Part shown: positions 1 to 64,000 of the stretch, one piece after another | How positions within the stretch are numbered: the first letter of the stretch is position 1 | Layout of the letters: each line of letters opens with the position of its first letter | Assembly (NCBI GenBank): GCA_965178125.1 | Contig: OZ237744.1 | Span: 806,001 to 870,000, forward strand | Origin: Bilabrum cf. latius | Lineage: Eukaryota | Reading direction: 5' to 3' | Length of the DNA: 64,000 nucleotides | Program-made: the position numbers and the translations under genes | Notes under the pieces: generated by a model | The model's database searches: none | The model's input: the letters and a program-made list of their open reading frames with translations, nothing else | What the model was told of the DNA's origin: nothing

Positions 1-2
1 TC

Positions 3-3000
3 AAAGCACGACTTGCCGCATCGGGAAGGGAGGATAGGGGGTCTATCAAGCAATCAGGCGGCAGAGGTGCCGCTTCTTCGTTGCCAGCGAAGAGAAAACG
101 ACCGAGGCAGGATTCCGGTTAGGATGCAGTTGCAGTTGTGCCTCCAAAGCAACCTCCGCTTACGGTCTAGCAGGCCGAGCTCGTGCTTCAGAGATTAACT
201 GCGCTTTCTAAACATCACAATGCAAGCAGCCGATGCGAGGCGTTGTTGAGTTTGAGACGTCTGGTGCATTGGAGAGGTGCAGCCCTAGTTTCGATCAGGT
301 TGCGCAGCCTCGTCGGGGTTACGATGCCTCGTCTCGTCGATGAAGACCCAGGGCCGAGGTATGCCGCCATACTGCTCATAGAAAGCATTATAGAGGCTGC
401 GTAGAAGGCAGGGCCGGCCATTTTGGAGAGCGGGATGTCCCACATCGTGGCTTCGCTGTGCAGCGCCCTGGCCTATCTCTCCACCGACGTGCGCCTTGAC
501 GCCCTCGCCGCCCTCTTCCTGTGCCTCAAGGCTGCCCCTCGCGCGTTCAGCCCTCCGGAGCACGCCGAGCGGCTGCTTCGCGGCGTCATAGACCTCATTC
601 CGAGCACTCGTCACTCGGCTGCGGAGGCCAGGTCATTCTTCGGGCTCTTTGCGCCCGACGCTGTCTGCGTGGGTGCGATCGCTGCAGGAGTTGCAATGGC
701 GGCGAAAGGCAAGGGCGTCCGCCCAGGGGACCGCAGCAGCCTGGCTGCAGTTCCTGCGGGAGACGAGGTGACCCACCAGGGACTCATAGCGGAGGGTACC
801 TAGACAGGGGGCGTGGGAGGCGCTTCCTCAGCAGGCGGAGCTTCCGCCCGGAAGAAGGCCCGCACGACCGTGGATCACCGCGCCAGCGCCAACTTGAAGG
901 TACGGAGCAGCGCGGCACAGGCCCGCAGCTGGGAGCTCCTCCATTCCACGGTTGACCTGGACGCCGTGCTGGCGTCGGCGGAGGCAGCTTCTGTGGGCGC
1001 GCACGCGCAAGACCACGGGGGGCAGACCGCCAGGGACAGTGTCCCTGCCCGCGTCATCATGACCCCCGAGGATGCCCGCATCGCTGCTTGCCTGGTGCTC
1101 GACGAGCTGCTCGCGGTGACCAAGCCGGGCCAGGGGCGGGGCGCCGACGGGGACTGGTCGAGTAGTCACCACCACTACCGCGCCTCCTCCTCCGTGTCGG
1201 CCTCGGTGGGGGGTGGGGCTGCTGCGAGCAGGGAGGCAGGGCCGCCGGCCCACCTTCTGCTTCCGACGCTGCCGTCCGCAGCAGAGGCTTCCAAGTCTAG
1301 GGCCTCCCGGGGCACCTCGTCCACCATGCCTGCTGGGGCCACCACGGGAGTGCACGCCGAATCTGCTGCCACGGTGTTCACAGAGGATTTGGCCGCGGTC
1401 GAGACCGCCCACCTGGTAGGATGGGGCATGCAGCAGGGCACGGACGACTCGACGTCCAGCAGGTGGCTGACTCCATCGTTTGCTGCGGAGGCCGTCCGCG
1501 GGCTCGGCAGCGTCTGGGAGGAGTCCACGGACAGCATCGCGAGGGCGGGCACGACAACACAGCCTTGGCACGTCAAACGGCTCGTGCTCATCGCCGGGCT
1601 CATGCACAAGGTGGCCAGCGCCTCTGCGGCCGAGACGGTCGCGATGCGCGCACTGCGGCGTGGTGGAGGGCGTGGCTCTGGTCCTGGCAGCCGAGTCACC
1701 GGCCAGGCGGGACTGAGCGCCAGTGACCTCGTGGCAGGATGCGTGGCTGGCCGGGTGGGACAGGCGGTTCTGAGTCCGCTGCTGCGCATGGTTCAGACCG
1801 CGAGGCAGGTGGAGCAGGCCCGTGCCGAGAGCGAGAGCAAAGGCGCCTCTGCCCAGACGGTGTCGGCGAAGCAGATCACGGACTCCTGGCGGAGACTGGA
1901 GGGGCTTGGTGTGCACCTGGGCGCGCTGCTGCTAGCGAAGCAAGACAGGGCGTGGAAGAGCTGGCCGAGGCACTACCAGAGCGCCAGTCACACCGTGATT
2001 CACGCCTTCAAGACCGCGCAGCAGAGCCAGGGCCCTGTCGACGAGGACGCATCATCATCATCATCATCTCCTGCTGTTGCTGCTGCTAGTTCGAAAGGCG
2101 GCGCAGCAGGCCCGGCAGCCAAGAAAGCGGTGTTCGACCCGGACGCTGCAGAGGCAGAATCTGACGACGAAGAGCAGCGCGGCTTGAACCCGCTCGCCGT
2201 GAGCAAGGCGCCCAAGGGCTCGATCGCGTCCTTCGTTGATAGGGCGAGGGCCACCATCCGGGCTCAGCGCAAGAAGGATGAGGCCAGGCGGCAAGCGGAG
2301 GAGCTCAAGGGAGGCAGCAAGGGCAAGGGCAAGCGTAGCAGCAAGAAGGAGAAGCAGAAGGCAGCGGCGGCGAAGCGTGCTGTGCGGCAGCGAGACGCCC
2401 TCAAGTCTGCCTTTGGCTGGGTGCCTCGCCTCCTCGTGTCCGAGTGCGCGCTGCTCGAGCAGCTGTCTAAAGAGCACGCGATGCGGCCTGCGATTGACTC
2501 GGATGACGAGACGTCATCATCGGATGAGGATGAAGACGGCTCCTCATCGGATGAGGACGAAGAGAGTGAAGCCGGCTCCACGGGCCAGCCCGCGCCCGGC
2601 ACAGCCGGTCGCGCTGGCTGGGAGGTGCTCGCAGCAGTGGAGCACGCAGGGGCACTCGTGGCGGCATGCAGGCGGGTAGAGGGCGTGGCTGAGCGGGTTT
2701 TGGGCGCGCTGCTTCTGGCTGCATCGGCCGCGGACCCGATGAGCTCGCTTGCCGCCCGCTGCATGTCGAGTGGCTCCGAGCTAGTGAGGACTCTGTGGAA
2801 GCAGGCGGCTGGAGCAGACTTGGACGGAAGCAGCGGCGTTGCAGGGTCTTCTTCGGTTGCGATGGCGCAGGGCGCACCCGGCGACAGCGGAGACGAGGAC
2901 GAGGACGAGGACGAGGAGGTGGAGGGCACGAAGGTGACCGACGGAGGACTCCTGGCCCTGGCCGCACAGACCGGCAAGACGAAGCTCGCACGCAGCATCG

Positions 3001-5252
3001 CAAAGAGATTCGCCCGGCAGGACGCCAAGGAGCAGTCCAGGAAGTAGTTGCGACAGGCCGCCAATGCTCGGGTCCTGGCTCAGCTAGCCGTGGTCGTGGG
3101 GGCCCTCGCGCAGCTGCTTGGGAAGCGTGCTGCCAGGCTGTCGCAGCTGGCGGTGAATGCGGCGAGATCAGGCAACGCCAGGGGAAACAGCAAAAAGACG
3201 CCGTTTCTCACGCCCGACGGGGTGGTAGACAGCTCTTGCACCGCCGTGATCGAGCTGCTTGGCGACATGGCGGCGTAGGCTGGTGTTGGAGGTGCCGGGC
3301 AGCGACAGGGGCTTGACGGGGACCACTCTGCGCAGTAGCAGCTGGTGTCGCTCCTCCTCGCGCCTTTAGCCGCTGCAAGCGCTTCAAAGCAGCGAGCAGC
3401 TGGCCCCGCTGTGTTCTTCGCACCCGGCACGCAGGCCAAGATCGTGTCGGCGGTGCTGTCCACGGGTATCGTGGACGAGCAGGGCGAGGAGGCGCTGGCC
3501 TTCGTGGCTGGTACCAGGGCATTCTCCACCGCTGCCAGGACCGTCGCACTGCAGGGCCTCCCGCTGAAACTGGCAGGTCAAGTTAGTGAGGCGGCGTCCA
3601 TGCAGCCCATGGGGGTCCGCGATGGCGAAGCAGCGTCGCTCGGGGGCTTGCATCCGCTGCTGGCGGCGAGGGTTCGGGTGCCGCTTCAGGTGCTGCTGGG
3701 ACGGTGCGTGGAGACAGCGTTAGTCATGCCAGAAGATCCGGAGTCTATGTTCGCGGGGCGGGACGTGCCTATGCGCAGTCGTCTGTCGGTGCGGCCACTC
3801 ACAGACTCAAAGGCCTCGGCTGTAGGTGACAGCGCACCGTGTGCTCCAGTGGCGTGGCTGGGCGACATCGCTAGGCTCAAGCACACGGACCCGGCGGGCG
3901 CGGTGCGGTTCTGCTCGGGTGCCATGCTGGGTACCTTGCTGCAGGCAGTGCACGCCATCCGCGATGCACTCGTGCGCGCATCCGTGGAGGAGCGGGCGGC
4001 CGCGGTGAAATCCATGCTGGCTGTGCTAGCCAGCGGCGAGGACCTATCCAGCGGCCTCCCAACTAGAGCGGGAGGTGCCAGCCCACCGGCCGACGCGACG
4101 GCACAGGTCCTCCTGGCCTCTGCATGCATCCACGCTGTGGGGGCTGCCTGGTCTCCGCCGGGGCTCCTCACTGCGGGGATTGAGGCCGGCAAACCAGGGG
4201 GCTCTGCAACCACGCGACCGGACGTGCGGGCGGCACTTCATATGGCGCGGTGGGCCATGGGCCCCGCCGTGCTGGTGATCGGGGCGGCCTGTGCGGATGC
4301 AGCGGCTTCGGGCGGGCAGGGCAGTTTCGAGGACTGTGATGCGATGCTGTCCGCTGCACTACCCGAGTGGATGTGCTATGATTATGGTGTCACGGGAAGC
4401 GGCCAGCAGGGGAACTCTGCGAAGGCAAGTGCTGCGATGGAGACGGATGAGACTGCGGCTGGCAGCGGGGATGATGAGGCTGGCAATGGTTCGGAGGCCA
4501 CGGCTGCAGCTTCTACTGGTCTGAAGCTCGGTACGGGCAGCAGTGCCGAAGAGGAGGAGGGCGAGAAGCATGGAGAGTTGGCAGAGGAGGACGAGCTGGA
4601 CGCGGTCCCTGTGCCCTGGGTGGAGACGGACCCCGAGGCGGTTGCAGCCAGGGAAGCTGAGCTTCGGCGCGCTGCAATGCAGTGCATCGACCCCCTGGGC
4701 AAGTTCGCTCCCGTTCTGGCGGCATCGCTGCTGGTGCTGCGATTGCAGGGCGCTGGAACTCTCAGCGATGCGGGTGATGCTGCAGGCGGATCCATCGGCA
4801 TGTCAGGAGCGCCGTCATCACCCGCTACTGGCAGACGCACAGGCAGCTCGAGTAGCAGCAGCAAGGCGAGCGAGAGCGCGGTGCCGTCTGACGCGCAGCA
4901 AGGAGTGCTCGCGCTGTCGGCTCTCATGTAGCACTGCGAGACGATTGTCCTCTAGGCTGACACGAACAGCAGCAAGGAGGGCGTGGCGGCGACTGGCAGC
5001 GGCAAGCCAATGGCAGCCGAGGGGCCGCGCAGCCGCAGCAGCGTCGGCTTGGCTCTTACCGCGGCAGCCGCGGCGCTGCACTCTGCCGCGTTCAGGAAGC
5101 TTTGGTGGTCTGAGGGAACAGCCCGCGAGAGCGTGGATAAGTTCGCGCGGGCCATGGTAGGCAAGGGACCCGTTGGCAAGGCCTCGGACGCGGGGTGCGT
5201 GCGGGACGTGCAGGCAGCGTTTCGTGGGCTGGGTCTCGACGCAGCCAAGTGA
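3..5252 (+). CDS. TEX10: TEX10/Ipi1-like Rix1-complex (pre-60S) protein, 5'-partial, with long low-complexity insertions
   Basis: One frame from 3 to TGA 5250-5252, broken only by 9 TAGs (120, 168, 402, 801, 3045, 3276, 3336, 4929, 4953). N-terminal motifs SKHHNASSRCEALLSL, PRLVDED and LCSALAYLSTDVRLDALAAL resemble the Ipi1_N region. Confidence 0.7.
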
Positions 5253-10923: not shown

Positions 10924-12045
10924 ATGGCAAGTGATGGTATAGACATCTTTGGTGGAGTAGTCGGGTCGGTTGTGTCTAAGCTTGTGTTTTATCCTATCGA
11001 AGGCGTGGAATCCAGGCAAAGGGTTGACCCGCACATCGGCGCCATGCATTTCAGCGAAGCCGCTTTGCATGTGGCCAGAACAGACGGTATTGCCGGGCTA
11101 TATGCGGGTCTTTCTGCGGCAGTACTGGGAGATTCGATAAACAGAGTTGTATACTTTGGACTATGGTGCATATTTGGCTGGATCTTGCGGACATTATCGA
11201 GTTCACATGCGGACACGACAGAGTTTGACGCCTTCAAGGATTTGTTCGCCGGGGTATTGGCTGGTGCGTGTGCGTCGGCCGTCATGAACCCAATATGGGT
11301 CATCTAGACTGAAATGACCAGAGAAAGAGGGAATGTAAGCTTCTTGTAGGCCTACAACAGGATTCACGATCGCAAAGGAGCGAGCGGGTTTTACGCTGGG
11401 GTCGGCATTAGCATGGTAGGATGCATCGATGGAGCTATGCAATGGAGCACTGTGCGCTATATAGAGGCAATGGTTGACGCTTCGCCCGGGCTTGAAAATT
11501 TCGGGCGATGGAACGGGGGCATGGAGCAGCTGCTCATGCGAATTGCGGTGTGGATCGCAGCGACAGCTGGACCTTGGTGGTGGCCTATCTTGCTTGGCTT
11601 CATAGCAAGACTATTTGCTGGTACTATAGCATACCCGTACATCGTTGTGCGGACAGAGCTGCAGGTAATGGCAGCTGAGACTGGCGATGCGCCTGCCACC
11701 GAACACGGCACGCGAGAGACTGCTACAGCCATACTCGATGCGCGGATGAGCAACGGCGACAGCACTAGTGACTAGGTGACTCTCCGGAAACGCAGGCACA
11801 AAAGCAGATGCGACCACGAGGGAGACCAACGCATCGCGAAAACAGAAGCATTTCGTGAGGGCAATCCGGCCAGCGCCCTCGCAGTTGCAGCGTCTAGGAT
11901 ATACAAGCGGGGCGGAATAGCTGGATTTTGGACCGGTTGGCAGGGCAACATGCTGGGACAGCTCCCGTCGGCCAGTGTGTAGACCGCCGTGCGGTCCCAT
12001 GTCCGCGAGGCGATCGCACGGTGGGGTGCTGCCGGCGGCGCGTGA
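10924..12045 (+). CDS. Mitochondrial carrier family (SLC25) protein
   Basis: Three carrier signature-like motifs YPIEGVESR, NPIWVI[TAG]TEM and YPYIVVRTEL, plus GIAGLYAG, GFYAG and GIAGFWTG. In-frame TAG at 11305, 11347, 11773, 11980; TGA 12043-12045. Confidence 0.88.
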
Positions 12046-12243: not shown

Positions 12244-15200
12244 TCAATCGAACTCGTCATCGCTGTACCCGCCATCACTGCTCACCTCAGTGTACCCTTC
12301 CGACCCGCTGATGATGCTGTTGCCAGCTAGACCATGGAACCCCCCGGCCTCGGGGCCCTCGGGTCTACTTGCGCCGCTTCGAGCGCCAGCACCAGACGTG
12401 CCGTAGCTGACCGGAGCCCCCGGTCTTGAGCGGGATGAGGATGGCCCTAAACCGCCTAAATCGGCCGACCGAGAGCCTGCGTAACCATAGGAAGCATGTC
12501 GCAGCGAGTCGCGACCCTGCTGCGTGAGCCTGTTGGCTGCCCGTCCGCTTCTCGCGGTGTTGGGCTTGCTGCTCTAGTAGCTGGCATACGACTCGCTCTC
12601 GCTGTCGCCTGGATCCACCGCATGATCTGGGACGGTGCTGGGCAAGTTGAACGGCATGCTACCGGTGCTTTGCATTGTGGGCCAGCTGGGTGATGGCGAC
12701 ATGGATACTGGTGGCACCTGAGCTTGCCTCGCTTGTTCCTGGGGTACCATGGCCCCATCGATTTCGGGAACAGAATGGCCAAAATGTCTCCCTTGATCGC
12801 TGGCAAGGCCGGCGTTCCGCTCATGATTGCCATGTTTCGATGCGAGCTGCCAGCCAGCAGCTTCCTCCGTCACCTCGACAAGGTCGGGCAACGGCTGCAG
12901 GCTCCGATGGCCGTGCGGGATTGGGCCGTCTGCGCTTGGGGACCAAGACTGCCCCGGCTGTACGCTGCTGGAGATGGAGTTGCGACCGGATGGTGCCATG
13001 GTTGGTAGTGTGGCGGGGTCGATGCTTGGGTTGCCGCCGCCCGGCCTGGAGATGGACGGGAGCGCCGCAAGCAGCTTGCGCATGGTGTCACCGTCCAGCT
13101 CCACCCGAGTGAGGGGGCGGGTCGCTAGCCTGCCATCTGACGACGTAGGCTCGCTAGCAAAGTACCGCTTTTCGACCCTGTTAATGTCCACCCGAATGCC
13201 CATGCGGCCCGGCTGCAGCAGCACGTGCGGCTTGCCGCTGCCCACCGTCACGGAAGGCGTCTTTGGCCTCGGCTGCGCACTCACCTCGATCATGGAGGAA
13301 GCCCCATCGCTCTCGAGGGAATCGGGCTTGTCGCCAGGCAGAGCAGAAGCTGATTGGCTCGGACCTGCATTGCTCACGGTACTCTGCCCACCATCGCTTT
13401 CGAGAGGGTCGGGACCCACCAGAGCCACGTTTCCGGTCAGTGCGGCGTCGGAAGCGCTCTGCTGCTAGGGGAGCGACGTGCTGGCAGCCCTCATTGGTCC
13501 AAACGGGTCGTTTGGATCGAATGCCGGGCGGATCTCCATCGCTTCAGGCTATGAAACCGTGGGCTGGAACCCCGCAAGCTCCTTGGGAACAACGGACTCG
13601 TGCTAAGCAGCGTCTTCACCCGCCGCTCCTGAGTCTGCAGCTCCTGGTGTAGGCACAGCAGCCGCCCACTGCACCGACTCGGGACGGTGGGCAGGCGATG
13701 GGAGCGGCGCTCCTCGCTCGACCGCATCCATGAGCTGCGAGAAGCTCCTTAGGTATGCGTCGACTCGGTTTAGCTTGTCTTTCATGCTCACCGTTGCGAT
13801 CAAGCTCCCGTCCATGTAATCCTGCAGCGCCGACAGAACGCCGTCTATCTCCCTCTTGTCGGTCATGATGTCGCGGTGCTTGGCCTCCATCGCCTGCAAC
13901 TTTGTCTAGGCTTTCCGCAGTCTACGCCCCGCGACAGTGGACACTGACTGCTCCGCAAGACGCTAGTCTCGCTCCCTCTGTCGCAATCGCGTCCGAAGAG
14001 AGGCATTTGCCCGCTCGAGTTGCTGGCACTCGTGCCCCGTGCGGGTCATCACCTCAACCACCCTGCCGTAGTCTGCCTCCGCCCTGTTGAAGGCTCTGGC
14101 CGCGGCGTCAATGGTGCTGTGGCCGAGCTCGTACAAGCACGTCTTGAGGGTGTCTCGAGACTGGTGTATCTTCTGCTTGAGCGATTCGGCTTCGTCCTTC
14201 AGTCGAACTTGCTCCCTCGCGAGGAACTTGACCTCTTCTTTCATCGCAAACTCTTGCTCAATCGTCATGCTCCCAATGTCGCCGAGGGTCTTGCAGCCTT
14301 CGGTCGCGGGCTCGATAGGGGTACTGGAGGGAGCCTAGGCTGAATCTGGCTCACTAGGTGCAAATGAAGTGCTTGTTGCAGAACTACGGTCTGGTGAGGC
14401 TTGGTCGGTGACAGTCTTTGGCACTCGCACAGCTTCCGCGTGCCTCTCTCGCACGAGTCCCTCTCGGGCCTCTGACATCCTGTGGTCAAACTCAAGCTTG
14501 TCTCTCAGCGCCTCTCGCTAAAGTTCGTTGATTTGCTCCATCAGCTAGTCTCGCCTGCGGCGCCAAGACAGAGTCTACCGTCTCTGCTAGTCTACCTTGA
14601 GCTTTGAACCAGCAGCCTGCATCTCGCGAGGCAGCAGCCTCGCATCCGCCGCAGACCGCTCTGTCTGCTTGTTCGCAAATTCCGCGAGAAGACTCTTACT
14701 AAGGCCTATTTCTTGCGACAAACTCTTCATGAGTACTTCCACCATGTGCTGTTGAGAGCGAATGAGGCGCTACTACTTCTGATAGTTTACCTTCGGCTGC
14801 TCAGCGTTGTTGGCGTCGTTCTTTTTCAATAGCACCAGTTCTTTAACGCCTTTGATATCTGCAATAATTCTGGCCTATTCCATGGCCTTTGCCTCAACCG
14901 CGCGAGTCAGCCGCTCTTCTCTGTCAAGTAGATGGACTAGCTGGGCGTCAAGGTCCTTAGCTGGTCCAAGCAGCTGCTTTTCTTGAGCAGTTGCAATGGT
15001 GAGCTCGGTCTTATAAACATCATTCTACTATTGTAACAATTTAATGGCGTCTCTGCGGGAAGTGACGTAGTATTACCCGTAGAAATTCCGTAGGAGTGAA
15101 TGCACTCGCGATGGAAGCGAGCGCTGCGAGTGGAACGCTCACTTCTATCGAGCCAGCGAACGATCAGCATCACGTTTATATTTCGAAGAGTACTACGCAA

Positions 15201-15275
15201 ATATTCTGTCGTGATCCGTCCCCGATTGCATCGTGGCTTAGATCCTCTAGCTTGGGCTTGTCCGTTCGTTTAACC
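12244..15275 (-). CDS. Long coiled-coil protein with weak resemblance to outer-dynein-arm docking complex (CCDC63/CCDC114-like) subunits; start codon not found
   Basis: A single frame from 15052 to TGA 12244-12246 is broken only by more than a dozen TAGs and joins ORFs 13963, 13603 and 12574. Heptad-like E/K/R/Q/L composition; probable intron 15053-15142. Confidence 0.7.
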
Positions 15276-27539: not shown

Positions 27540-27658
27540 TCATCCCACACCGCCGGCTGCCTGCTTTTTCCTAGCCAAGTACGCCTTGAAGCCGAGCACC
27601 GGCTTCTTGCTCTCAGAAGCAGATGGAGCGACCCCGGATGTGGTGGCACCACTGCTAG

Positions 27659-27712
<54 letters not shown>

Positions 27713-34982: not shown

Positions 34983-35093
34983 CAATTAATATGGCTGCGG
35001 TTTCAACTGTCCGGAACTGATCAAGATAGCCCCCCTGGCACGCGTACTTTGCCGCTGCTTGTGACGATGGCTTAACTGCAACTCGTCGATTGA

Positions 35094-46566: not shown

Positions 46567-46583
46567 AACAGGCAAATGAAACT

Positions 46584-49500
46584 TTAGCGTGTGGACACAA
46601 CAGTCACCGTCCAAACCACCGACAGCACAAGCGCCACACCCGACAGCCCCACAATCCACACCGTCGTGCCCACCACATGATCCCAGTACAGCGATGGGTC
46701 TGTTGCCAACATCGCCATCGCTGACTAAGACAGGCGCTGCCCAACCACGCACTGCCGCCACCCACATGCCCCCGAAGCGCAAGCCAAAGCCCAGCTGAAG
46801 CCCCCGATCACACACGCATCTTCCAAGCCACGGAACCACGCAGCCGCCCCGTCCACCCAGCTGGCCCCGACAAGTCTCAGGACGCGCTGCCGCTCACTGC
46901 ACGGGCTCCAAGCACCAGCCGTCTCACGATGCTGGTCGTACCGCCTGTGAGCCAGCGGATCGAGGGCTTCGGATGCGCCGGACCAGAGGAGCTGCAGAGC
47001 ATCCCACTGCAGCGTGGCAAGAAATCGCACCAGGATGGTAGCTCCGATGTGCTGGCTGGCATGCTGCCGAAGCGCCCTAGAAATAGCAAGGACGGGGCTT
47101 CTGCCAGCCGGCTTATGCGGGTGGCTGACCATACTGCGCACTATTCGAGAAGCTGCAGGCTCTTGACCTAGGTTAGCGGGCTCTTCAGTGCTGCCATCGG
47201 CACTGCTTGAGTCCATTGAGTTATGCCAGTGCCCTCGTGACAAACTGCCAGCTACCGCCCCAATGCCCATTTCACCTTCACTGGAGGAATCTGACGATGC
47301 TTCGAACACCGATGTGAAAGCCTCGATGACCTTGTCGTTAGCTTGCTAGTTTGAGCTCCACTCCGTCGAAGTCGCCCGCACTGCAAAATCATCTTCAGGT
47401 ACGGATGACGCTTCACCGACATTCGGTTCGCCAGAGTTACTCGATGACTACCTGTGCTTGCGGCTAGAATTAAACTAGCGCGTAAGCCCTGCTCTAGTCC
47501 CACCGGCCTTGGGGCGTGATTTACATGGCAGCTGGAGCTCTGGTGCAACAGCTGGCGACTGCCTTGTTGCAGGGGTCAATGCCCCTACTGAAAGCAGCGG
47601 AATGGGCAGGATCAGCACACGAAGGATGCTTGATACCACGATGCCCCCGAGCACCAGCAGCCCAGGGCTGCTCAGACGGACATTCACCAACACCACGCCA
47701 AGACTTACATACTGCGCCCAGCGCCACAGACTCAACACACCCACCAGCCCACCACACAGCTGGCCACAGCGCAACGGCTCACCAACCAAGGCTGCACAGC
47801 GCCATCCTGACTCTGATTGGCCCCCTGCAGCATCAGTGCCACTGTGCTCGCTGCTGCGATGCTGGATGCTCACACCCGCTGTCAGATTCGACACGGGAGT
47901 ACTAGCAAAGCTGCGGTCGCTCTCCGCACCTGGTAACCACTCGCCAACCAGCAATGGTGCCGTCAATGACCGCGAGTGGCGCTCATGCAGATACCGACCA
48001 CGCATCCACCAGCCTGTGACTACCCCAAACACACCTACAATCAGCATAAACAACACCCCCAGCTACACCCCGCCAGACACGCTCACCCATGATCCCGCGC
48101 CTACCGCCCCGCACTCACGAGCATCCGACCCATATCTGCCCGACAAGCAAGGCAGACGCACGCGGTATGACACACTCCCTGCGTCCACCGCCGGCAGCCA
48201 CGCTCCCCCCTTCGCCCCGGGACGATGCCCGCGCAAAATGCCCACCAGCTACTGAGCAAGTGTCCCGGCCGACCGACCACGCTGCACGCCACCACTCACA
48301 GACGAAGGATACAACACTGCTCCCAGCTCCTTCAGAGACACTTGCACACGCACATGCATCGGGAACGAGTCCACACCCACACGCCCAGGCGCCCGCACCC
48401 ACATCACGCGACTCTCGATCGACCGCGTCTGCAGTCGCGCCACCACCGTGTCGTTGCCTGCTGTCCTGTTCACACGCTCCCCGATCCCCACCTCCACGCC
48501 CCGCCCGCGCACAGTCCAGTCCACCTCGCCCAGCAAGTCGCCCACGTCGGCCGACACCTCCGCCTCCAGCCGACGCACCTGCGCCGCTGTGGGCTGAGGG
48601 TAGTCCAGACCCACATCCCCCACCGAGCTGGACTACGCCGCTGGCCAGTAGCTGCGGTCGAATGACAGAGTCAGCCACACGTCCGCGCGGCTCGTCGGCT
48701 CCCGCTGCGCCCACAGCGACTGCCACGACACGCTGCTGCCCACGTCGCGCACGCACCGCATGTCCGTCTCCACCTCGTCTCCCAGCCTGTACCGAGGCGC
48801 ATGCCACGCGCCCCACCCAGACCAGCTCCCGAACGATGCCACCATGCCTCCGCCCTGACGGTCCGATCGAGGCACCACGCTCTCGCTCTGCACCAGCGAC
48901 GGATACCCGCCCCACGCCGACAGCCACGGACGCGCCAGCGATGCCACCAGAGACATGCCATGCTGACCCGCATCATGCCCAGACCCATCGCCAGCCCGCC
49001 GCTGCAGGCCCACGTCCACGGCCACACGCGACGGATCCAAACACTCCGCCCGACACACAGGACGCATGAAGAACGCGCCCAGCGGCGACGTCTCCATGCA
49101 TGTCCAGTACCCGCCCTGGATGGCCGGCAGGGACTTGTTGACGGGCGGCGCCGTCAGCCTCCAGAGCGCCGCACCCCTGTACCTGGCCTTGGGCCCCTAC
49201 AGCACGGGCCGGTCGGGCGACAGGGGCTGAGGGCCGTCTGGATCGGCTGGTCGCACAGGTCGCCAGGGAATCCTGCTTGAATCGATTCTGCCAGAAGGAC
49301 GCTACTTTTCCTTTGAGCTTGGGATACTACTGGTAGTTGTGGAATGACTAGATGACGCATTCCATGTCCCTCTGGCTGGGGCCTGGTCCGGCATGCCATA
49401 TCCTCCGATGGCGGCCATGCGGGTGGAGGCTGCAGCGGGGTAGTCCATGTGCACAGGTGCGACTGATGGAGGAATCAATAAACCAGATGGATAGCCATCT

Positions 49501-51349
49501 CGTCCTACATAATAGCTCAGGTCGCATCCGAAACGCGGGATGCGAGTGCCGATGGGCTGCTTCCAGTATACGTCCCTGATCCAGTCCTTCACTGCCTGCT
49601 ACACGGCGGGGCTGCCAGGTGTCTGGTTCCTGGGAGCCACGGGGCTGCATGTCTGCGTGGCGACACAGGATGGATCGTCCAAGATGACCTGAGCAGAGAT
49701 AAATTGTTCATAGTCCTTTATATGGTTTGGTACTCCTTGTGATTCATCTAGACCGATTGTGGGTTCCTTGTTAGGACGACCGAACCTGTCGCACAGCATG
49801 GATCCAGCGTCTGAGTAGTCATATTGAGATTGCCCACCCGGGGATAGCACAGACGGGATGGAGGCTACGTTCATCATCGTCTGCACCACGTACCCTTCAT
49901 TGATGCGCCACGGGTAGGCGACACGCGGGAACTCTGCCCTGTCAGTCGTTGCTTGCACAACCATCTCGGCCACCGTCCCGGGGGGATACACCACGGTGAG
50001 GAGCTGATGCCATCTGTTGTCGACACCTGCCCCTGAGGATGGAAACCGGTAATCAAGTGTACCTGGTGGATTGGGGATGTGAGCTATTGTTCCGTGCAAC
50101 GTTTTCTCCGAAAGGAGATAATTGTTCTACGGGAAATGTTTTGCGTTCTTCGCCCACGGCTCGCCGTAGTCGTAGAAGCAGTCGCGCGGATCGGACGTGG
50201 CGTTCCAGTTGGGCCCACGCCAGAGAGTGGCCTGCCTGCATGTGTCATTGGGTGCTATGGGTACTCCGGCAGGCGTGCACACATCGCCCAGCTGCACGGC
50301 GGGACAAAGCCGTAATGGAACCTTGAACTTAGCTACTCGCGACTGCAGCTTAAGGTCTTCGTAAAAGCCATACTCCAGACTGTGCCCGTGAGTGACACTA
50401 CTTAGTTTTGCAGCGAAGAATGTCGGCGCCCACGGACGCTTGGATTCACCCACTGACGTTTCGCCGAGATATCGATGGTACGACCCTGTCAGCAGCTGGC
50501 CGGTCTCCTTGGACCTTCGTGGTGCACTTGGAAGCTCAAAAGTAAATACCCACTCCTCCGTCGTCCACGGCTCCACTGATCGAGTCGGAGGCAACAACGC
50601 GCTGCTCCGAGGTGACACACCCACAGCATATGGGGCCTCCTGCGGGGATGCTGCAGCCGGGTACCTCCCGTCCATCGGAGCCGACAGCGTCGCGTTCACC
50701 AGACACTCCTCGATGGCCGCAGAAGCGCCGTCAGTGCCGTTCTGCCTGCACGCCGCGATCGGACCCATCGCACCTCCAGTGCCCCCAGGCATGGCCCCGC
50801 CCCACTGCCACCGAGACATGTTGCCGGGGTACCGAGGGGTCCATGGGATGGGCACCAGCTCGCAGCCGGCCTGGTCAGCGCCATCAGGAGACGGGCGCGC
50901 CGCGGCATCGGCAGAGTCGATGACACGCTTGTCTCGAGTGGCATGGACACCGATGCCGATGGAGCTGGGGCCCCGAGTGGCGAACCATGTGGCTGCGAGG
51001 GGAGTGAAACAGGAAGCAAAACAAAGGTGGGCCACTCTGCTTTGCTGCATCTCGCCGGACTAAGTGACAATGCAGCTGCACAGCACAAGTACTAAACGAT
51101 GCAGGACTAATCTGCCCGTACAATTCGCAGAAGGGGTGAGGCGGACACCGAGACTCTATCGGAGGTGCAGGACTTGAGTCTATGCACACACCATCGTTCT
51201 GGCGGTCGTCAACAGTGCGCACCCACATACTCACAATTGCATTTCGACACAGTGCTACTCCCAAACAGCTGAATCTGGGGCCCAGCAGATTCCATAGCGT
51301 CCCGTATACTGATCCCGTTCGTCATGATGATCAGAGTCAAGGCAAACAT
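46584..51349 (-). CDS. Variable surface/membrane protein family, copy B (start approximate)
   Basis: Paralogous to A in inverted orientation; same first-exon/intron layout (GISIRDAMESAGPQ...CN|); ends at TAA 46584-46586. Confidence 0.8.
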
Positions 51350-51818: not shown

Positions 51819-54800
51819 TCAGTTCCTGCACGCCAACAAAACCACAGTCCAAACCACCGACAGCACAAGCGCCACACCCGACAGCCCCACAATCCACACC
51901 GTCGTGCCATCCACATGCTCCCAGTACAGCGATGGGTTCGATGCCAGCATCGCTATCGCGAACTCAGACAGGCGCTGCCCAACCACGCACTGCCGCCACC
52001 CACATGCCCCCGAAGCGCAAGCCAAAGCCCAGCTGAAGCCCCCGATCACACACGCATCTTCCAAGCCACGGAACCACGCAGCCGCCCCGTCCACCCAGCT
52101 GGCCCCGACAAGTCTCAGGACGCGCTGCCGCTCACTGCACGGGCTCCAAGCACCAGCCGTCTCACGATGTGTGTCGCGCGCCCTGCCTGCCAGCGGATCG
52201 AGGGCTTCGGATGCACCGGACCAGAATATCTGCAAGGCATCCCACTGCAGCGTGGCAAGAAATCGCACCAGGATGGTAGCTCCGATGTGCTGGCTGGCAT
52301 GCTGCCGAAGCGGCTGCTCTAGGGCACATGGGGCACTGGCGCTACCGATCTACTGATGAATCCATCCACGACGCGATTTGCTGGCTCCTTTCGCCACCGC
52401 TTCGTCGGATGTTGGGCTGCGATCAGACGCCCCTTGATCATTATCAGATTCTGAGCTTTTCTCCGGGTCTGCTTGCTACCGTCGCAGCTGTCCTGGCAGA
52501 TCGTAGTCATTGAGGCTATCCATTACTCCTGAGTCCATTGAGTAGCGCCAGCCTCGGTTGGGCTTATTGAGGGAGCTCACGCTTCCGCTTGAGGTGCCGG
52601 TGGTCTCGCTCGTGCCTGCTCCGAATCCAGCGATGCGGACGGCAATCGTTGGATCTGTCCCCACCTTCGCTAGTGTCCGCCGTTCCCGACTGCTGCCCAG
52701 GGCATCCCGACACGATGGAAGCTCTTCATTGCGATCCGACGTGACGTGGCTTGTTTCCGACAAGTTGATGAAATGAGACGAGTAGCTGTTACCGCCTTTT
52801 TCCGACTCAGATGAACCCGATTCCTGACCTGCCGCAACTCTACCGATGTTCCTGCTTCTCTTCAACCGGCCCGCTGACTCGACATACCGAGACGGGTCTT
52901 TCGGACCAAGGAATGCTCCTCCATGAACAACATAAAGCAGCCAACGGGACACCACTACCACCATGAGTCCTCCTAGGACCACCACACCGGGTCCATTCAG
53001 CCGCAGCAACAGGAGCATGACACCAAAGCAAACATACTGCGCCCAGCGCCACAGACTCAACACACCCACCAGCCCACCACACAGCTGGCCACAGCGCAAC
53101 GGCTCACCAACCAAGGCTGCACAGCGCCATGCTGACTCTGATTGGTCCCCTGCAGCATCAGTGCCACTGTGCTCGCTGCTCCGATGCTGGATGCTCACAC
53201 CCGCTGTCAGATTCGACACGGGACTACTAGCAAAGCTGCGGTCGCTCTCCGCACCTGGTGACCACTCGCCAACCAGCAATGGCGCTGTCAATGACCGCAA
53301 GTGACGCTCACGCAGATATTGACCACGCACGCCCCAACATACAACCATAAACATCGAACTCAGTAACAGCACCATCAACACCCCCAGCTACACCCCGCCA
53401 GACACGCTCACCCATGATCCCGCGCCAAAACCATCGCACTCACTGGCATGCTCAGCATACCCGCCCGACAAGCAAGGCAGACGCACGCGGTATGACACAC
53501 TCCCTGCGTCCACCGCCGGCAGCCACGCTCCCCCCTCCGCCCCGGGACGATGCCCGCGCAAAATGCCCACCAGCTACTGAGCAAGTGTCCCGGCCGACCG
53601 ACCACGCTGCACGCCACCACTCACAGATGAAGGATACAACACTGCTCCCAGCTCCTTCAGAGACACTTGCACACGCACATGCATCGGGAACGAGTCCACA
53701 CCCACACGCCCAGGCGCCCGCACCCACATCACGCGACTCTCGATCGACCGCGTCTGCAGTCGCGCCACCACCGTGTCGTTGCCTGCTGTCCTGTTCACAC
53801 GCTCCCCGATCCCCACCTCCACGCCCCGTCCGCGCACAGTCCAGTCCACCTCGCCCAGCAAGTCGCCCACGTCGGCCGACACCTCCGCCTCCAGCCGACG
53901 CACCTGCGCCGCTGTGGGCTGAGGGTAGTCCAGACCCACATCCCCCACCGAGCTGGACTACGCCGCTGGCCAGTAGCTGCGGTCGAATGACAGAGTCAGC
54001 CACACGTCCGCGCGGCTCGTCGGCTCCCGCTGCGCCCACAATGACTGCCACGACACGCTGCTGCCCACGTCGCGCACGCACCGCATGTCCGTCTCCACCT
54101 CGTCTCCCAGCCTGTACCGAGGCGCATGCCACGCGCCCCACCCAGACCAGCTCCCGAACGATGCCACCATGCCCCCGCCCTGACGGTCCGATCGAGGCAC
54201 CACGCTCTCGCTCTGCACCAGCGACGGATACCCGCCCCACGCCGACAGCCACGGACGCGCCAGCGATGCCACCAGAGACATGCCATGCTGACCCGCATCA
54301 TGCCCAGACCCATCGCCAGCCCGCCGCTGCAGACCCACGTCCACGGCCACACGCGACGGATCCAAACACTCCGCCCGACACACAGGACGCATGAAGAACG
54401 CGCCCAGCGGCGACGTCTCCATGCATGTCCAGTACCCGCCCTGGATGGCCGGCAGGGACTTGTTGACGGGCGGCGCCGTCAGCCTCCAGAGCGCCGCGCC
54501 CCTGTACCTGGCCTTGGGCCCCTACAGCACGGGCCGGTCGGGCGACAGGGGCTGAGGGCCGTCTGAAATGGACTGGCGTGACGGTGATTGACTCAAGCTG
54601 GGGCCAGGTGCGGACTTGCCGCTTGGGTCCAATACTCGACTACTGGTCGATGATGCGTTCCATGACCCTCTGGCTGGGGCCTGGTCCGGCATGCCGTATC
54701 CTCCGATGGCGGCCATGCGGGTGGAGGCTGCAGCGGGGTAGTCCATGTGCACCAGATCGTACATGGGCGGCAGGAGCAAGCCGGACGGGTAGAAGTCTTT

Positions 54801-56537
54801 CCCCGCATAGTAGCTCAGGTCGCATCCGAAACGCGGGGTGCGAGTGCCGATGGGCTGCTTCCAGTACACGTCCCTGATCCAGTCCTTCACGGCCTGCTAC
54901 ACGGCGGGGCTGCCAGGTGTCTGGTTCCTGGGAGCCACGGGGCTGCATGTCTGCGTGGCGACACAGGATGGATCGTCCAAGATGACCTGGGCGGACACAA
55001 GTGGATCCAATCCGTGCAATGTCTCTGCACTTGCAACAGAATTCTCTGATTGCGATGCTGGTCGATCGAACCTGTCGCACAGCATGGATCCAGCGTCTGA
55101 GTAGTCATATTGAGATTGCCCACCCGGGGATAGCACAGACGGGATGGAGGCTACGTTCATCATCGTCTGCACCACGTACCCTTCATTGATGCGCCACGGG
55201 TAGGCGACACGCGGGAAGTCGGCTGGGTCAGTCGTTGCTTGCACAGCCATCTCGGCCACCGTCCCGGGGGGATACACCACGGTGAGGAGCTGATGCCATC
55301 TGTTGTCGACACCTGCCCCTGAGGATGGAAACCGGTAGTCAAGTGTACCTGGTGGATTGGGGATGTGAGATGCCTGACCTTGCTGCTCCGAGTGGGACTG
55401 CTGTGCTTTGCCCCTCGTGAACGTCTTGGCCGATGCAACCTGTGGCTGACCATAATCTTGGTAACAGTCGCGTGGATCCGTCGTCAAGTTCCAACTCGAC
55501 TAACGCCAAAGCGTGGCCTGCCTGCATGTGTCATTGGGTGCTATGGGTACTCCGGCAGGCGTGCACACATCACCAAGGAGAACTGGACCGCATGCCGCAA
55601 CTGGTAGATTGTATTGCGCTACCCTACTAAGCAGAGCAGGCGCATCAAACGCGCCAAAGACAAGACTGTGACCGTGAGTGTTAGCTTTGACCCCTTGAAC
55701 GCTATGCGTTGGCGCCCACGGACGCTTGGATTCACCCACTGACGAAATACCGGTGTACCTCTCATAGGACGCAGTCAGCATCGCACCAGTGGCTAGCGGT
55801 CTCGGAATATGTGGCTGCGCGAATGCAAGCGCCCACTCCTCCGTCGTCCACGGCTCCACTGATCGAGTCGGAGGCAACAACGCGCTGCTCCGAGGAGACA
55901 CACCCACAGCATATGGGGCCTCCTGCGGGGATGCTGCAGCCGGGTACCTCCCGTCCATCGGAGCCGACAGCGTCGCGTTCACCAGACACTCCTCGATGGC
56001 CGCAGAAGCGCCGTCAGTGCCGTTCTGCCTGCACGCCGCGATCGGACCCATCGCGCCTCCAGTGCCCCCAGGCATGGCCCCGCCCCACTGCCACCGAGAC
56101 ATGTTGCCGGGGTACCGAGGGGTCCATGGGATTGGCACCAGCTCGCAGCCGGCCTGGTCAGCGCCATCAGGAGACGGGCGCGCCGCGGCATCGGCAGAGT
56201 CGATGACACGCTTGTCTCGAGAGGCATGGACACCGATGCCGATGGAGCTGGGGCCTCGAGTGGCGAACCATGTGGCTGCGAGGGGAGTGAAACAGGAAGC
56301 AAAGCAAAGGTGGGCCACTCTGCTTTGCTGGATCTCGCCTAGCACACACCATCGTTCTGGCAGCCGTCAACAGTGCGCACCCACATACTCACAATTACAT
56401 TTCGACACCGTACTACTTCCAAACAGCTGAATCTGGGGCCCAGCAGATTCCATTGCGTCCCGTATACTGATCCCGTTTGTCGAACGAACAATCAGCAGTC
56501 CCGTGGCGAATAGAAGCTACATGAGTGAAAGCTCCAT
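51819..56537 (-). CDS. Variable surface/membrane protein family, copy C
   Basis: MELSLM[TAG]LLFATGLLIV signal exon; direct paralog of B; TGA 51819-51821. Confidence 0.8.
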
Positions 56538-56844
56538 ACGAAAAGAAGAGGTTACAGCCAGTGCTTTGGTGGCCTCCTAATTCCTGGGATTGGGTCTTTG
56601 CATCAGAGCTCCAGGCTCAAAACTACCTAATTCTTGCAGCTATCCCATCCATAGATCCAAGTCATGGCGCTTTTTGTCGCGTAAATTGTATGTACGGCTG
56701 ACCCGAAAGATAAAGGGTTAGTTTGTGAAAAAGAGAGATTAGAGGCTTGCGAAACTTTGCTGTGTGTTCGTGATCGCCCAGTCAATTCGGCGCCTGGTTT
56801 TAATCTTCTTCTTGAAAGTTCAACACGCTACAAAGACGCCTGCC

Positions 56845-59197: not shown

Positions 59198-62100
59198 TCA
59201 GTTCCTGCACGCCAACAAAACCACAGTCCAAACCACCGACAGCACAAGCGCCACACCCGACAGCCCCACAATCCACACCGTCGTGCCATCCACATGCTCC
59301 CAGTACAGCGATGGGTTCGATGCCAGCATTGCCATCGCGAACTCAGACAGGCGCTGCCCAACCACGCACTGCCGCCACCCACATGCCCCCGAAGCGCAAG
59401 CCAAAGCCCAGCTGAAGCCCCCGATCACACACGCATCTTCCAAGCCACGGAACCACGCAGCCGCCCCGTCCACCCAGCTGGCCCCGACAAGTCTCAGGAC
59501 GCGCTGCCGCTCACTGCACGGGCTCCAAGCACCAGCCGTCTCACGATGTGTGTCGCGCGCCCTGCCTGCCAGCGGATCGAGGGCTTCGGATGCGCCGGAC
59601 CAGAATATCTGCAAGGCATCCCACTGAATTGCCATCAGGATTTCCATGAACACTGTGATACCAACGTGCTAACCAGCATGCAATCGCATAAGGGCCCTAC
59701 CCTCAGGGCCTCTGCGGCTGCCATTGCTGCTGCTTGAATCGGACGGCAACACTGCACCTGCACGGCCGTTCGTACTTCCAGGACCTGGCTGCAACGACAT
59801 GCCAACCGAGGCACTGCTGCTTCCTTGGCTCGCTTGTGGTTGCAGACCCTTCGGGGTACTGCTGCTTCCTTGGCTTGCTTGCGGTTGCAGACCCACCGAG
59901 GCACTGCTGCTTCCTTGGCTTGCTTGCGGCGGCAGACCCACCGAGGCACTGCTGCTTCCTTGGCTTGCTTGCGGCGGCAGACCCACCGAGGCACTGCTGC
60001 TTCCTTGGCTTGCTTGCGGCGGCAGACCCACCGAGGCACTGCTGCTTCCTTGGCTTGCTTGCGGCGGCAGACCCACCGAGGCACTGCTGCTTCCTTGGCT
60101 TGCTTGCGGCGGCAGACCCACCGAGGCACTGCTGCTTCCTTGGCTAGGTCGAGGAGGTTGCCCTGCAGAGGCATCGGTGCGATCCAAACCGAGCGGCTGA
60201 GCCAGCTCGATCTCCGCAGCATCAGCGTCGTCGTCACCGGAAGGGCTGCGTTGCTGCTCCTCATCGTTCTCAGCGTTGACACCATGGTTTGGATGGACAT
60301 CGGGCTTATCAGGTGCAACAACGTCCTCAAGATTCCCACCATGGAACGTTTTAATCACAGACTGTTCGTCTGAGTCACGATCTCTCCAATACTTCGATGA
60401 CCCTCCACTCGACACCTCTGATTCCGAGCTACTTCGGTCCTCTGATTCGCCTGCCTATATGGCTGCTCCGTGAGTAACCTCAACGTTTGACCCGGACATG
60501 TCGTCCAAGTCAGGCCCTACCTAGTCATTTCCGATCTGCTCCCTCTAGTAGCTATCCACGCTCAACACGCTGGAAGGAGAGCCACAACCACAGAATGCCC
60601 TCACCGCAACGGACAGTACCAGTCCTCCCAGGACCACCACACCGGGTCCATTCAGCCGCAGCAACAGGAGCATGACACCAAAGCAAACATACTGCGCCCA
60701 GCGCCACAGACTCAACACACCCACCAGCCCACCACACAGCTGGCCACAGCGCAACGGCTCACCAACCAAGGCTGCACAGCGCCATGCTGACTCTGATTGG
60801 CCCCCTGCAGCATCAGTGCCACTGTGCTCGCTGCTCCGATGCTGGATGCTCACACCCGCTGTCAGATTCGACACGGGACTACTAGCAAAGCTGCGGTCGC
60901 TCTCCGCACCTGGTGACCACTCCCCAACCAGCAATGGCGCTGTCAATGACCGCAAGTGACGCTCATGCAGATACCGACCACGCACGCCCCAACATACAAC
61001 CATAAACATCGAACTCAGTAACAGCACCATCAACACCCCCAGCTGCACCCCGCCAGACACGCTCACCCATGATCCCATTCCGAAACTTTCACAGTCGCTG
61101 GCATGCTCAGCATACCCGCCCGACAAGCAAGGCAGACGCACGCGGTATGACACACTCCCTGCGTCCACCGCCGGCAGCCACGCTCCCCCCTCCGCCCCGG
61201 GACGATGCCCGCGCAAAATGCCCACCAGCTACTGAGCAAGTGTCCCGGCCGACCGACCACGCTGCACGCCACCACTCACAGATGAAGGATACAGCACTGC
61301 TGCCAGCTCCTTCAGAGACACTTGCATACGCACATGCATCGGGAACGAGTCCACACCCACACGCCCAGGCGCCCGCACCCACATCACGCGACTCTCGATC
61401 GACCGCGTCTGCAGTCGCGCCACCACCGTGTCGTTGCCTGCTGTCCTGTTCACACGCTCCCCGATCCCCACCTCCACGCCCCGCCCGCGCACAGTCCAGT
61501 CCACCTCGCCCAGCAAGTCGCCCACATCGGCCGACACCTCCGCCTCCAGCCGACGCACCTGCGCCGCTGTGGGCTGAGGGTAGTCCAGACCCACATCACC
61601 CACCGAGCTGGACTACGCCGCTGGCCAGTAGCTGCGGTCGAATGACAGAGTCAGCCACACGTCCGCGCGGCTCGTCGGCTCCCGCTGCGCCCACAATGAC
61701 TGCCACGACACGCTGCGGCCCACGTCGCGCACGCACCGCATGTCCGTCTCCACCTCGTCTCCCAGCCTGTACCGAGGCGCATGCCACGCGCCCCACCCAG
61801 ACCAGCTCCCGAACGATGCCACCATGCCCCCGCCCTGACGGTCCGATCGAGGCACCACGCTCTCGCTCTGCACCAGCGACGGATACCCGCCCCACGCCGA
61901 CAGCCACGGACGCGCCAGCGATGCCACCAGAGACATGCCATGCTGACCCGCATCACGCCCAGACCCATCGCCAGCCCGCCGCTGCAGACCCACGTCCACG
62001 GCCACACGCGACGGATCCAAACACTCCGCCCGACACACAGGACGCATGAAGAACGCGCCCAGCGGCGACGTCTCCATGCATGTCCAATACCCGTCCTGGA

Positions 62101-64000
62101 TGGCCGGCAGGGACTTGTTGACGGGCGGCGCCGTCAGCCTCCAGAGCGCCGCGCCCCTGTACCTGGCCTTGGGCCCCTACAGCACGGGCCGGTCGGGCGA
62201 CAGGGGCTGAGGGCCGTCTGAAATGGACTGGCGTGACGGTGATTGACTCAAACTGGGGCCGGGTGCGGACTTATCGCTTGGGCTCTATACTCGACTACTG
62301 GTTGATGATGCATTCCATGCACCTCTGGCTGGGGCCTGGTCCGGCATGCCATATCCTCCGATGGCGGCCATGCGGGTGGAGGCTGCAGCGGGGTAGTCCA
62401 TGTGCACCAGATCGTACATGGGCGGCAGGAGCAAGCCGGACGGGTAGAAGTCTTTCCCCACATAGTAGCTCAGGTCGCATCCGAAACGCGGGGTGCGAGT
62501 GCCGATGGGCTGCTTCCAGTACACGTCCCTGATCCAGTCCTTCACGGCCTGCTACACGGCGGGGCTGCCAGGTGTCTGGTTCCTGGGAGCCACGGGGCTG
62601 CATGTCTGCGTGGCGACACAGGACGGATCGTCCAAGATGACCTGCGCAGATGCGATAGAGCCAAATTCAACCGATTGCGTCCCGTCGGTAGTACTTATTG
62701 CTTGATTCGGAATCGGTCTTCCTTCCGGATCGCACAGCATGGATCCAGCGTCTGAGTAGTCGTAGAGCGCACCACCATCCGGGGATAGCACAGACGGGAT
62801 GGAGGCTACGTTCATCATCGTCTGCACCACGTACCCTTCATTGATGCGCCACGGGTAGGCGACACGCGGGAAGTCGGTTGGGTCAGTCGTTGCTTGCACA
62901 ACCATCTCGGCCACCGTCCCGGGGGGATACACCACGGTGAGGAGCTGATGCCACCTGTTGTCGACACCTGCCCCTGAGGATGGAAACCGGTAATCAAGGG
63001 TACCTGGCGGGTTGGGGATGTGGGCTGCCTGACTCTGCAAGGTGGTCTCTCGGGCGACAAAGCTGTTTTGTGGGAAGGCCTTGGCTGACGCGGCCCAAGG
63101 CTAACCAACGTCATTGTAGCAGTCGCGCGGATCGGACGTGGCGTTCCAGTTGGATCCACGCCAAAGCGTGGCCTGCCTGCATGTGTCATTGGGTGCTAGG
63201 GGTACTCCGGCAGGCGTGCACACATCGCCCAGCTGCACGGCCGGGCAATCTGCGACGGGGATGTTGTATTGCGCGACCATGGAGGCCTGCACTGGAAACA
63301 AATAGGTACCTGGGACGAGGCTATGCCCATGCGCAACGTTGTCCCGCACGCTGGAGTAGTACGTCGGCGCCCACGGACGCTTGGATTCCCCGACAGGTGT
63401 TGCTCCCGGGTACCTCTCGTATGAACCGCTCAGGAGCGGGCCCTGCACGGCGGTACCCGCCCGGGATACGTGTGGGACAAACGAAAATACCCACTCCTCC
63501 GTCGTCCACGGCTCCACTGATCGAGTCGGAGGCAACAATGCGCTGCTCCGAGGAGACACACCCACAGCATATGGGGCCTCCTGCGGGGATGCTGCAGCCG
63601 GGTACCTCCCGTCCATCGGGGCCGACAGCGTCGCGTTCACCAGACACTCCCCGATGGCCGCAGAAGTGCCGTCAGTGCCGTTCTGCCTGCACGCCGCGAT
63701 CGGACCCATCGAGCCTCCAGTGCCCCCAGGCATGGCCCCGCCCCACTGCCATCGAGACATGTTGCCTGGGACCCGAGGGGTCCATGGGATAGGCACCAGC
63801 TCGCAGCCGGCCAGGTCAGCGCCATCAGGAGACGGGCGCGCCGCGGCATCGGCAGAGTCGATGACACGCTTGTCTCGAGTGGCATGGACACCGATGCCGA
63901 TGGAGCTGGGGCCCCGAGTGGCGAACCAGGTGGCTGCAGGAAACAAAAACTGAGAATTACATCGGACTCACGACGAATATACATAGACGAGCTCGACAAT
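59198..64000 (-). CDS. Variable surface/membrane protein family, copy D (first exon beyond window end)
   Basis: Direct paralog of B and C; splice acceptor near 63936; TGA 59198-59200. Confidence 0.8.
59805..60145 (-). repeat. 45-bp coding tandem repeat, about 7.5 units (SQGSSSASVGLPPQA)
   Basis: Unit gaggcactgctgcttccttggcttgcttgcggcggcagacccacc repeated head to tail within copy D. Confidence 0.95.

Follow-up and report, generated by a model that had tools for sequence, protein, structure and literature searches.

Whether UAG still means stop is the question raised by a stretch of 64,000 nucleotides from Bilabrum cf. latius (contig OZ237744.1 of assembly GCA_965178125.1, positions 806,001 to 870,000 of the forward strand), referred to here as the window. 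Read with the standard code, the window holds just four open reading frames (ORFs) of at least 500 amino acids; reading TAG as sense raises this number to 17, and the longest of them has 1,749 codons. The original prediction, made from the letters of the DNA, was that UAG has become a sense codon for glutamine in this organism. That UAG is a sense codon is practically certain, and this part of the prediction is borne out by codon counts, by homology that runs across the TAGs and by spliced contigs that retain them. Given that UAG is sense, glutamine is very probably the residue that it encodes. On either strand, Pfam and PDB searches identify genes of the usual eukaryotic nuclear kind, and the guanine-plus-cytosine (GC) content is about 0.60, with a range of 0.56 to 0.66 in 4-kb steps. 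The window is best explained as nuclear DNA from a flagellated protist, probably one of the stramenopiles, whose genome is GC-rich and has few introns.

Twenty-three coding stretches of the window could be fixed by homology, by paralogy or by RNA contigs. Over their 16,893 codons TAG occurs in frame 109 times, and neither TAA nor TGA occurs in frame at all. In these stretches the two off frames contain 247 TAG, 95 TAA and 596 TGA. Therefore, TAG is undepleted in the coding frame, at 109 against about 124 per off frame, and TAA and TGA are excluded from it. There are about 6.5 TAGs per 1,000 codons, and TAG makes up 14% of the sum of CAG, CAA and TAG. In-frame TAGs had been noticed across many genes on both strands, and 19 of the 23 stretches do hold at least one. 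TAG is missing from the window's most conserved genes, those for NDUFS7, the oligomycin-sensitivity subunit OSCP of the ATP synthase (an exon) and GH88, and from one other stretch.

The ORF at positions 3..5252 of the plus strand, which had been described as carrying nine TAGs and no TAA or TGA, is exactly as described: it is cut by the window's 5' edge and spans 1,749 codons up to a TGA, and a Pfam search gave no family for it. With TAA and TGA as the sole stops, 24 ORFs of at least 400 amino acids are found on both strands, and each contains between 1 and 21 TAGs. When TAG is read as sense in first-order Markov shuffles (n = 5), 0 to 1 ORFs of at least 500 amino acids result, against 17 in the window. 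If TGA is freed, however, 21 long ORFs likewise appear, as shadows cast by GC-rich coding DNA. ORF length alone was therefore set aside as proof; given that it is not decisive, the proof that TAG is sense lies in homology that runs across the TAGs.

Such homology is found in the flagellar RIB72/EFHC gene, the main exon of which lies at 22924..25425 on the minus strand and encodes three DM10 domains (Pfam DM10, E 1.8e-63) and EF-hands before it ends at TGA. Two introns lie upstream on the same strand, at 25426-25596 and 25703-25852. The RIB72/EFHC1 chains in the PDB align on either side of all three of its TAGs (24763-24765, 24715-24717 and 23407-23409), the last of which occupies position 2 of an EF-hand loop. 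A mitochondrial carrier gene at 10924..12045 on the plus strand (Pfam Mito_carr, E 5.5e-37) has four TAGs, at 11305-11307, 11347-11349, 11773-11775 and 11980-11982, and the first sits inside the second-repeat signature P-I-W-V-I-x-T-E. The CELF-like gene for an RNA-binding protein with three RRMs, in two exons at 17209..19850 on the minus strand, has TAGs in RRM1 (19500-19502), in RRM3 (17866-17868) and near the C-terminus (17266-17268), and ends at TGA. The short-chain dehydrogenase (SDR) gene at 38417..39466 on the minus strand carries TAGs just after the second Rossmann strand (39191-39193) and at 39440-39442, and also ends at TGA. The original prediction had placed TAGs inside folded domains, namely in RRM1 and RRM3 of CELF, the EF-hand loop, the SDR and the carrier signature, and each of these placements is exact. 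The Rtf1-like gene with a Plus-3 domain, at 27540..29498 on the minus strand, has three TAGs, all outside the domain, and a TGA end.

Four large membrane proteins, here called paralogs A to D, also align with one another across their TAGs, and in four alignment columns TAG is present in all four. Paralog A lies at 42097..46566 on the plus strand, with 21 TAGs and a TGA end. The other three are on the minus strand: paralog B at 46584..51230, with 14 TAGs in the ORF (11 of them past the first methionine used for the codon count) and a TAA end; paralog C at 51819..56366, with eight TAGs and a TGA end; and paralog D at 59198..63967, with ten TAGs and a TGA end. No Pfam family was found for any of the four (42097-63967).

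A second species provides a comparison from outside the genome. An EFHC protein search returned two relatives, P0009 and P0010, at 84-86% identity, and the contig behind P0010 is a metagenome contig, L001, from the environment. Positions 1-6537 of L001 are syntenic with positions 25700-20400 of the window at 75-78% nucleotide identity, with the gene order EFHC, cyclase-like gene and OSCP as in the window, and the two align across TAGs. L001 comes from a related species and has in-frame TAGs of its own, at other places than those of the window. The cyclase-like gene, at 21391..22723 on the minus strand with an intron at 22319-22412, has a single TAG at 21466-21468, where L001 has TAG as well. 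To judge from its motifs, this gene may resemble a cyclase or a kynurenine formamidase, and its exon gave zero PDB matches. The deposited EFHC protein of L001, P0010, begins directly after an L001 TAG, and the ORF of a carrier relative, P0039, stops exactly at the column of the first carrier TAG. At least one related species thus likewise uses TAG in frame.

The fate of the TAGs in RNA can be followed in assembled contigs from three sequencing runs, X5, X6 and X7, which come from two other studies of organisms coded B and C. The runs were treated as RNA-derived on the basis of splice joints and a poly-A end. Their contigs have very uneven depth, GT..AG or CT..AC joints and a loose poly-A end at 27457. 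The joints are at 9802/9982, 20062/20354, 22318/22413, 25425/25597, 25702/25853, 26340/26443 and 26535/26880, and remove introns of 94-344 nucleotides with GT..AG ends. The DNA run X1 has none of those joints and no poly-A end, and agrees with the window. It weighs against this use of the runs that the RNA status of X5, X6 and X7 is a guessed label, that X5 is labelled 'probably DNA' and that no run holding the window DNA is recorded as RNA.

Nineteen TAGs are covered by contigs of X5, X6 and X7 (three in EFHC, 13 in a coiled-coil protein, two in CELF and one in the cyclase-like gene), and at none of them is there a gap or a different letter. The coiled-coil ORF, at 12244..15072 on the minus strand, has 16 TAGs and a TGA end, and 13 of the 16 fall within one X5 contig (13242-14916) with no other letters or gaps; a search for homologues of similar length, at E 1e-10, found none. 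The TAGs in the CELF RRMs are unchanged in contigs at 19034-19868 (X5, X6 and X7) and 17700-18782 (X7). The EFHC TAGs at 24763, 24715 and 23407 are unchanged in spliced contigs of all three runs. For X6 and X7 the EFHC TAGs and the splice joints lie within one record; for X5 the piece that bears the TAGs is listed alone, at a depth of 122.7, which is also the depth of the two joints. Because spliced contigs keep the TAGs unchanged and ungapped, the TAGs at these 19 sites are neither spliced out nor edited, to the extent that the guessed RNA label holds.

What UAG encodes was approached first through near relatives. In EFHC, the three window TAGs face CAG (24763-24765), CTC (24715-24717) and CAG (23407-23409) in L001, and the surroundings of both TAG/CAG pairs are fully conserved. 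In the reverse comparison, TAGs of L001 face CAG (at 21849), GAA and GAT in the window, beside the one TAG/TAG pair at 21466-21468; a further pair at 25428, with TAG in L001 and CAG in the window, is intronic and was dropped from the count. A carrier relative that is 85% identical, P0037, has lysine and glutamine at the last two carrier TAGs. Glutamine is therefore the near-relative partner in four of eight cases, three of them seen as CAG, and leucine, lysine, glutamate and aspartate are found once each; serine, tyrosine and tryptophan are never found.

More distant homologues add to this. The last exon of EMC3, at 37750..38295 on the plus strand (Pfam EMC3_TMCO1), has TAGs at 37921-37923 and 38107-38109, and in PDB alignments the first of these aligns with a glutamine common to human and yeast EMC3. 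A carrier ortholog at 40% identity, P0038, has glutamine at the first two carrier TAGs. In a tally weighted by a BLOSUM substitution matrix, glutamine reaches 44.1, glutamate 20.4 and lysine 12.2, and serine and leucine fall below zero; after removal of the P0038 columns, glutamine stands at 34.1 and glutamate at 16.4. The part of the original prediction that assigned glutamine therefore names the best-supported residue, on a small sample.

Several observations weigh against glutamine, and they are also what would favor a reading in which UAG is sense for some other residue. The sample consists of eight near-relative comparisons and about ten distant columns from one window, and when the distant columns are taken alone without P0038, glutamine (7.1) is barely above glutamate (5.5). 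The EFHC TAG at residue 237 (24715-24717) aligns with a tryptophan conserved in Chlamydomonas and mammalian DM10 and with leucine in two near relatives, a column that glutamine does not explain well. The column of the EFHC TAG at residue 221 holds arginine, lysine and lysine in distant homologues. At the first carrier TAG (column 128), the wider family has lysine in 33, asparagine in 17, arginine in 6 and glutamine in 4 of 64 sequences. The SDR column reads E, R, K, E, E, that of RRM1 reads E, E and that of RRM3 reads S. The family-wide carrier, SDR and RRM columns were rejected as a test of the residue, being too variable to pick one.

The paralogs were likewise judged indecisive as a test. 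A loose tally favors CAG, with ten cells. When strictly well-aligned context is demanded, TAG faces GAG twice and GGG, GGA, TTG and CAG once each, which again speaks against glutamine. These strict partners are mixed, and synonymous changes only modestly outnumber non-synonymous ones, with 195 against 161 codon differences in the well-aligned parts of paralogs A to D.

A last point on the same side concerns the databases. The protein P0008, which matches the window at 22924-25260 with 99% identity, has glutamine at all three EFHC TAGs and a GTG-type start, suggesting that the database gene caller applied TAG as glutamine to this eukaryotic contig. Since the caller reads TAG as glutamine, the glutamines of P0009 and P0038 could themselves be TAG, and are maybe not independent. 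If UAG encodes another residue, glutamate and lysine are next best, and leucine, serine and tyrosine are known or conceivable elsewhere; the distant columns rich in lysine, arginine and glutamate, the single GAA, GAT and lysine partners among near relatives and the two GAG of the strict paralog test would suit such an assignment. Set against the four glutamines in eight near-relative pairs, the fully conserved surroundings of both EFHC TAG/CAG pairs, the shared glutamine in human and yeast EMC3 and the lead of glutamine in the matrix tally, a residue other than glutamine is quite unlikely.

If UAG is read as glutamine within genes, it could still serve as a stop for some of them in a suitable context, so the ends of genes have to be considered. 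The 22 ORF ends are TGA in 19 cases, TAA in three and TAG in none. Because only TAA and TGA were allowed to close an ORF, TAG ends are excluded by definition; about eight ends were checked from outside. The ORFs of EFHC, OSCP and the first exon of the cyclase-like gene have TGA at the same place as in L001, the cyclase one being intronic and no gene end. Paralogs C and D have their TGA no more than one residue away from the TAA of paralog B. On the plus strand, a small gene that is spliced and profilin-like (a weak Pfam Profilin match, with joints 26340-26443 and 26535-26880) has a TAA stop at 27282..27284, and the poly-A tail starts at 27457, about 170 nucleotides past it, so TAA still terminates. 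The TAA at 15270 is probably an exon end and not a true stop, because its ORF breaks off just past a Walker A motif. Termination is still by UGA in most genes and by UAA in the others. The earlier statement that no gene convincingly ends at TAG may hold, and agrees with the ends checked from outside, all of which are TGA or TAA; the ORF ends by themselves do not bear on it, given how the ORFs were defined.

Codons with a double meaning have precedents in Condylostoma and the karyorelict ciliates, and for UAA in Blastocrithidia. A UAG that is sense inside genes and a context-dependent stop for some of them would escape the ORF structure, again because TAA and TGA define the ORFs, and it would be in keeping with TAGs that lie shortly before a final stop, such as the CELF TAG at 17266-17268, 19 codons ahead of TGA. 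All 22 ORF ends are nevertheless TGA or TAA; wherever L001 orthologues, paralogs A to D or the one poly-A site allow an end to be checked from outside, TGA or TAA stands at the corresponding position; and paralog sequence is conserved past the last TAGs. A dual-meaning UAG is for these reasons very unlikely. That the TAGs are untranslated, because they are spliced, edited, or belong to pseudogenes or assembly errors, has a negligible probability, since no point in favor was found beyond the guessed RNA label of the transcript-like runs, and it is opposed by the 19 TAGs left intact in spliced contigs of three runs, by the agreement of the DNA run X1 with the window, by in-frame counts (109 TAG, no TAA and no TGA) that decay would not give, and by TAG places that are conserved among the paralogs and in L001.

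A code in which UAG is glutamine and UAA and UGA are stops is that of NCBI table 15, which reads the EFHC exon open, and the code of the window matches this table with high probability. In the Discussion of one paper, reassignment of UAG alone to glutamine is listed for the fornicate Iotanema spirale, for the ciliate Protocruzia tuzeti and for some phyllopharyngean ciliates (PMC11687900). The window is like these, as far as they are described there, in having UAG as a sense codon, most probably for glutamine, in keeping UAA and UGA as stops, and thus in uncoupling UAA from UAG. It differs from them in lineage, in its GC content of 0.60, in its ordinary GT..AG introns of 94-344 nucleotides and in a stramenopile-like NDUFS7.

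The same Discussion gives UAG as leucine in the uncultured rhizarian exLh and some phyllopharyngeans, UAG as serine in Scotinosphaera, and UAG as glutamate with UAA as lysine in the ciliate PL0344 (PMC11687900). These codes, as given there, resemble that of the window in the reassignment of UAG alone or in the uncoupling of UAG and UAA. Leucine, serine and glutamate are disfavored as the meaning of UAG in the window, as they are partners in one, none and one of the eight near-relative pairs, against four for glutamine, and score below zero, below zero and 20.4 in the matrix tally. The codon table of crAss-like and other phages that use code 15, with TAG as glutamine, is the same as the one proposed here, but the window is a eukaryotic nuclear locus with spliceosomal introns, poly-A and genes for RIB72/EFHC, Rtf1, EMC3 and CELF.

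Both UAA and UAG (UAR) are read as glutamine under NCBI table 6 in many ciliates, in ulvophycean green algae, and in Hexamita, Streblomastix and Amoeboaphelidium. Those codes and that of the window share a stop codon of the UAR pair that is read as glutamine, probably by a mutated tRNA-Gln. They differ in that TAA is not sense in the window, where it occurs 0 times in frame against 95 times off frame and ends paralog B and the profilin-like gene. Table 6 was therefore rejected, as there is no in-frame TAA in 16,893 codons.

By analogy with other reassignments, a tRNA-Gln in which the anticodon CUG has become CUA, by one change, would decode UAG, and eRF1 would have lost recognition of UAG and kept that of UAA and UGA. 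No tRNA genes were found in the window, in L001 or in a further contig, L002, and Rfam, rRNA included, gave zero matches within the window. An eRF1 gene is likewise absent from the window.

The lineage of the organism was approached through NDUFS7. Among the best 120 matches, 23 have a legible organism, and these are 19 stramenopiles, two names that begin 'Dur...', one mussel model and one Monosiga. In a quick FastTree of NDUFS7, which is one short protein, the nearest named sequence is Cafeteria; the PDB matches of NDUFS7 do not discriminate lineages. This sequence evidence is a hint of a stramenopile, not a placement. An organism associated with mussels was also considered, from the match labelled Mytilus, and was dropped because the matched sequence is a gene model of animal type with an internal duplication. 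The GC content, the sizes of the introns and the presence of complex I genes all speak against a ciliate. Fornicates are known as anaerobes that lack complex I, and the window encodes NDUFS7 and OSCP; the same features would also speak against a fornicate. The original prediction of a GC-rich, non-ciliate flagellate fits a window with GC near 0.60, GT..AG introns of 94-344 nucleotides, a RIB72/EFHC gene and an NDUFS7 nearest to those of stramenopiles.

Searches of Pfam and the PDB also named NDUFS7, an ankyrin protein, a GST and an amino-acid transporter, and the ATP-synthase OSCP exon was recognised by eye from its sequence. At 33816-36200 lie a GH88 unsaturated glucuronyl hydrolase gene, in which no intron was seen, and a neighbouring gene for a secreted protein (33819-34982) without a homologue in Pfam or the PDB. 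GH88 is known chiefly from bacteria and fungi, so that a horizontal origin is a possibility. Several proteins of the window have no family at all, four of them being the tandem paralogs of about 1,500 amino acids; long internal blocks of these are almost identical and their flanks diverge fast, and paralog D contains about seven copies of a 15-residue repeat rich in serine and glutamine. Between paralogs C and D, at 56816-58816 on the plus strand, an ORF with a Y-A-D-D motif and three in-frame TAGs has no Pfam match at E 0.01. The motif is known from reverse transcriptases, and the ORF may be a decayed or divergent retroelement. A helicase-like ORF at 15270-17015 on the minus strand has its TAA directly after the Walker A motif (GPPGTGKT), and the next ORF downstream is that of the coiled-coil protein; either the gene is truncated or additional exons must encode the remainder of the helicase. 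Short tandem units fill the CELF-like gene's intron, at about 18600-19420 on the minus strand, and all assemblies, of DNA and of transcript-like origin, break at 18782 and 19034.

Nuclear genetic-code changes are rare. Rarer still, with a mere handful of lineages listed in the Discussion named above, is the reassignment of UAG in genomes that keep UAA as a stop (PMC11687900). In a literature search, no stramenopile with a reassigned nuclear UAG came up, within a coverage that was partial, with many journals and supplements outside it, so that a printed report is possible. The window shows a real and well-supported genetic-code change of a type already described, one that is common to related species and whose lineage is probably new, and an independent origin of UAG reassignment here is plausible, not proven. 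We tentatively put forward, at somewhat under even chances, that this is the first case of a reassigned nuclear stop codon among stramenopiles, in which UAG alone switched to glutamine, independently and across a whole clade of free-living heterotrophic flagellates related to bicosoecids, in at least three species, environmental ones among them.

Each case of this kind that is independent tests codon capture against an ambiguous intermediate, and shows how eRF1 can part two stops that differ only in the third base. The setting here, a GC-rich genome with few TAA and with TGA as the prevailing stop, is unlike that of the AT-rich ciliates. Standard gene callers would break nearly all genes in this organism and in related ones, as they have P0010 and P0039, and annotation and metagenome binning of the group need table 15. 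If the switch in stramenopiles is real, these flagellates would offer a non-ciliate system in which to study the discrimination of UAA from UAG by eRF1, for which DNA and transcript-like data already exist.

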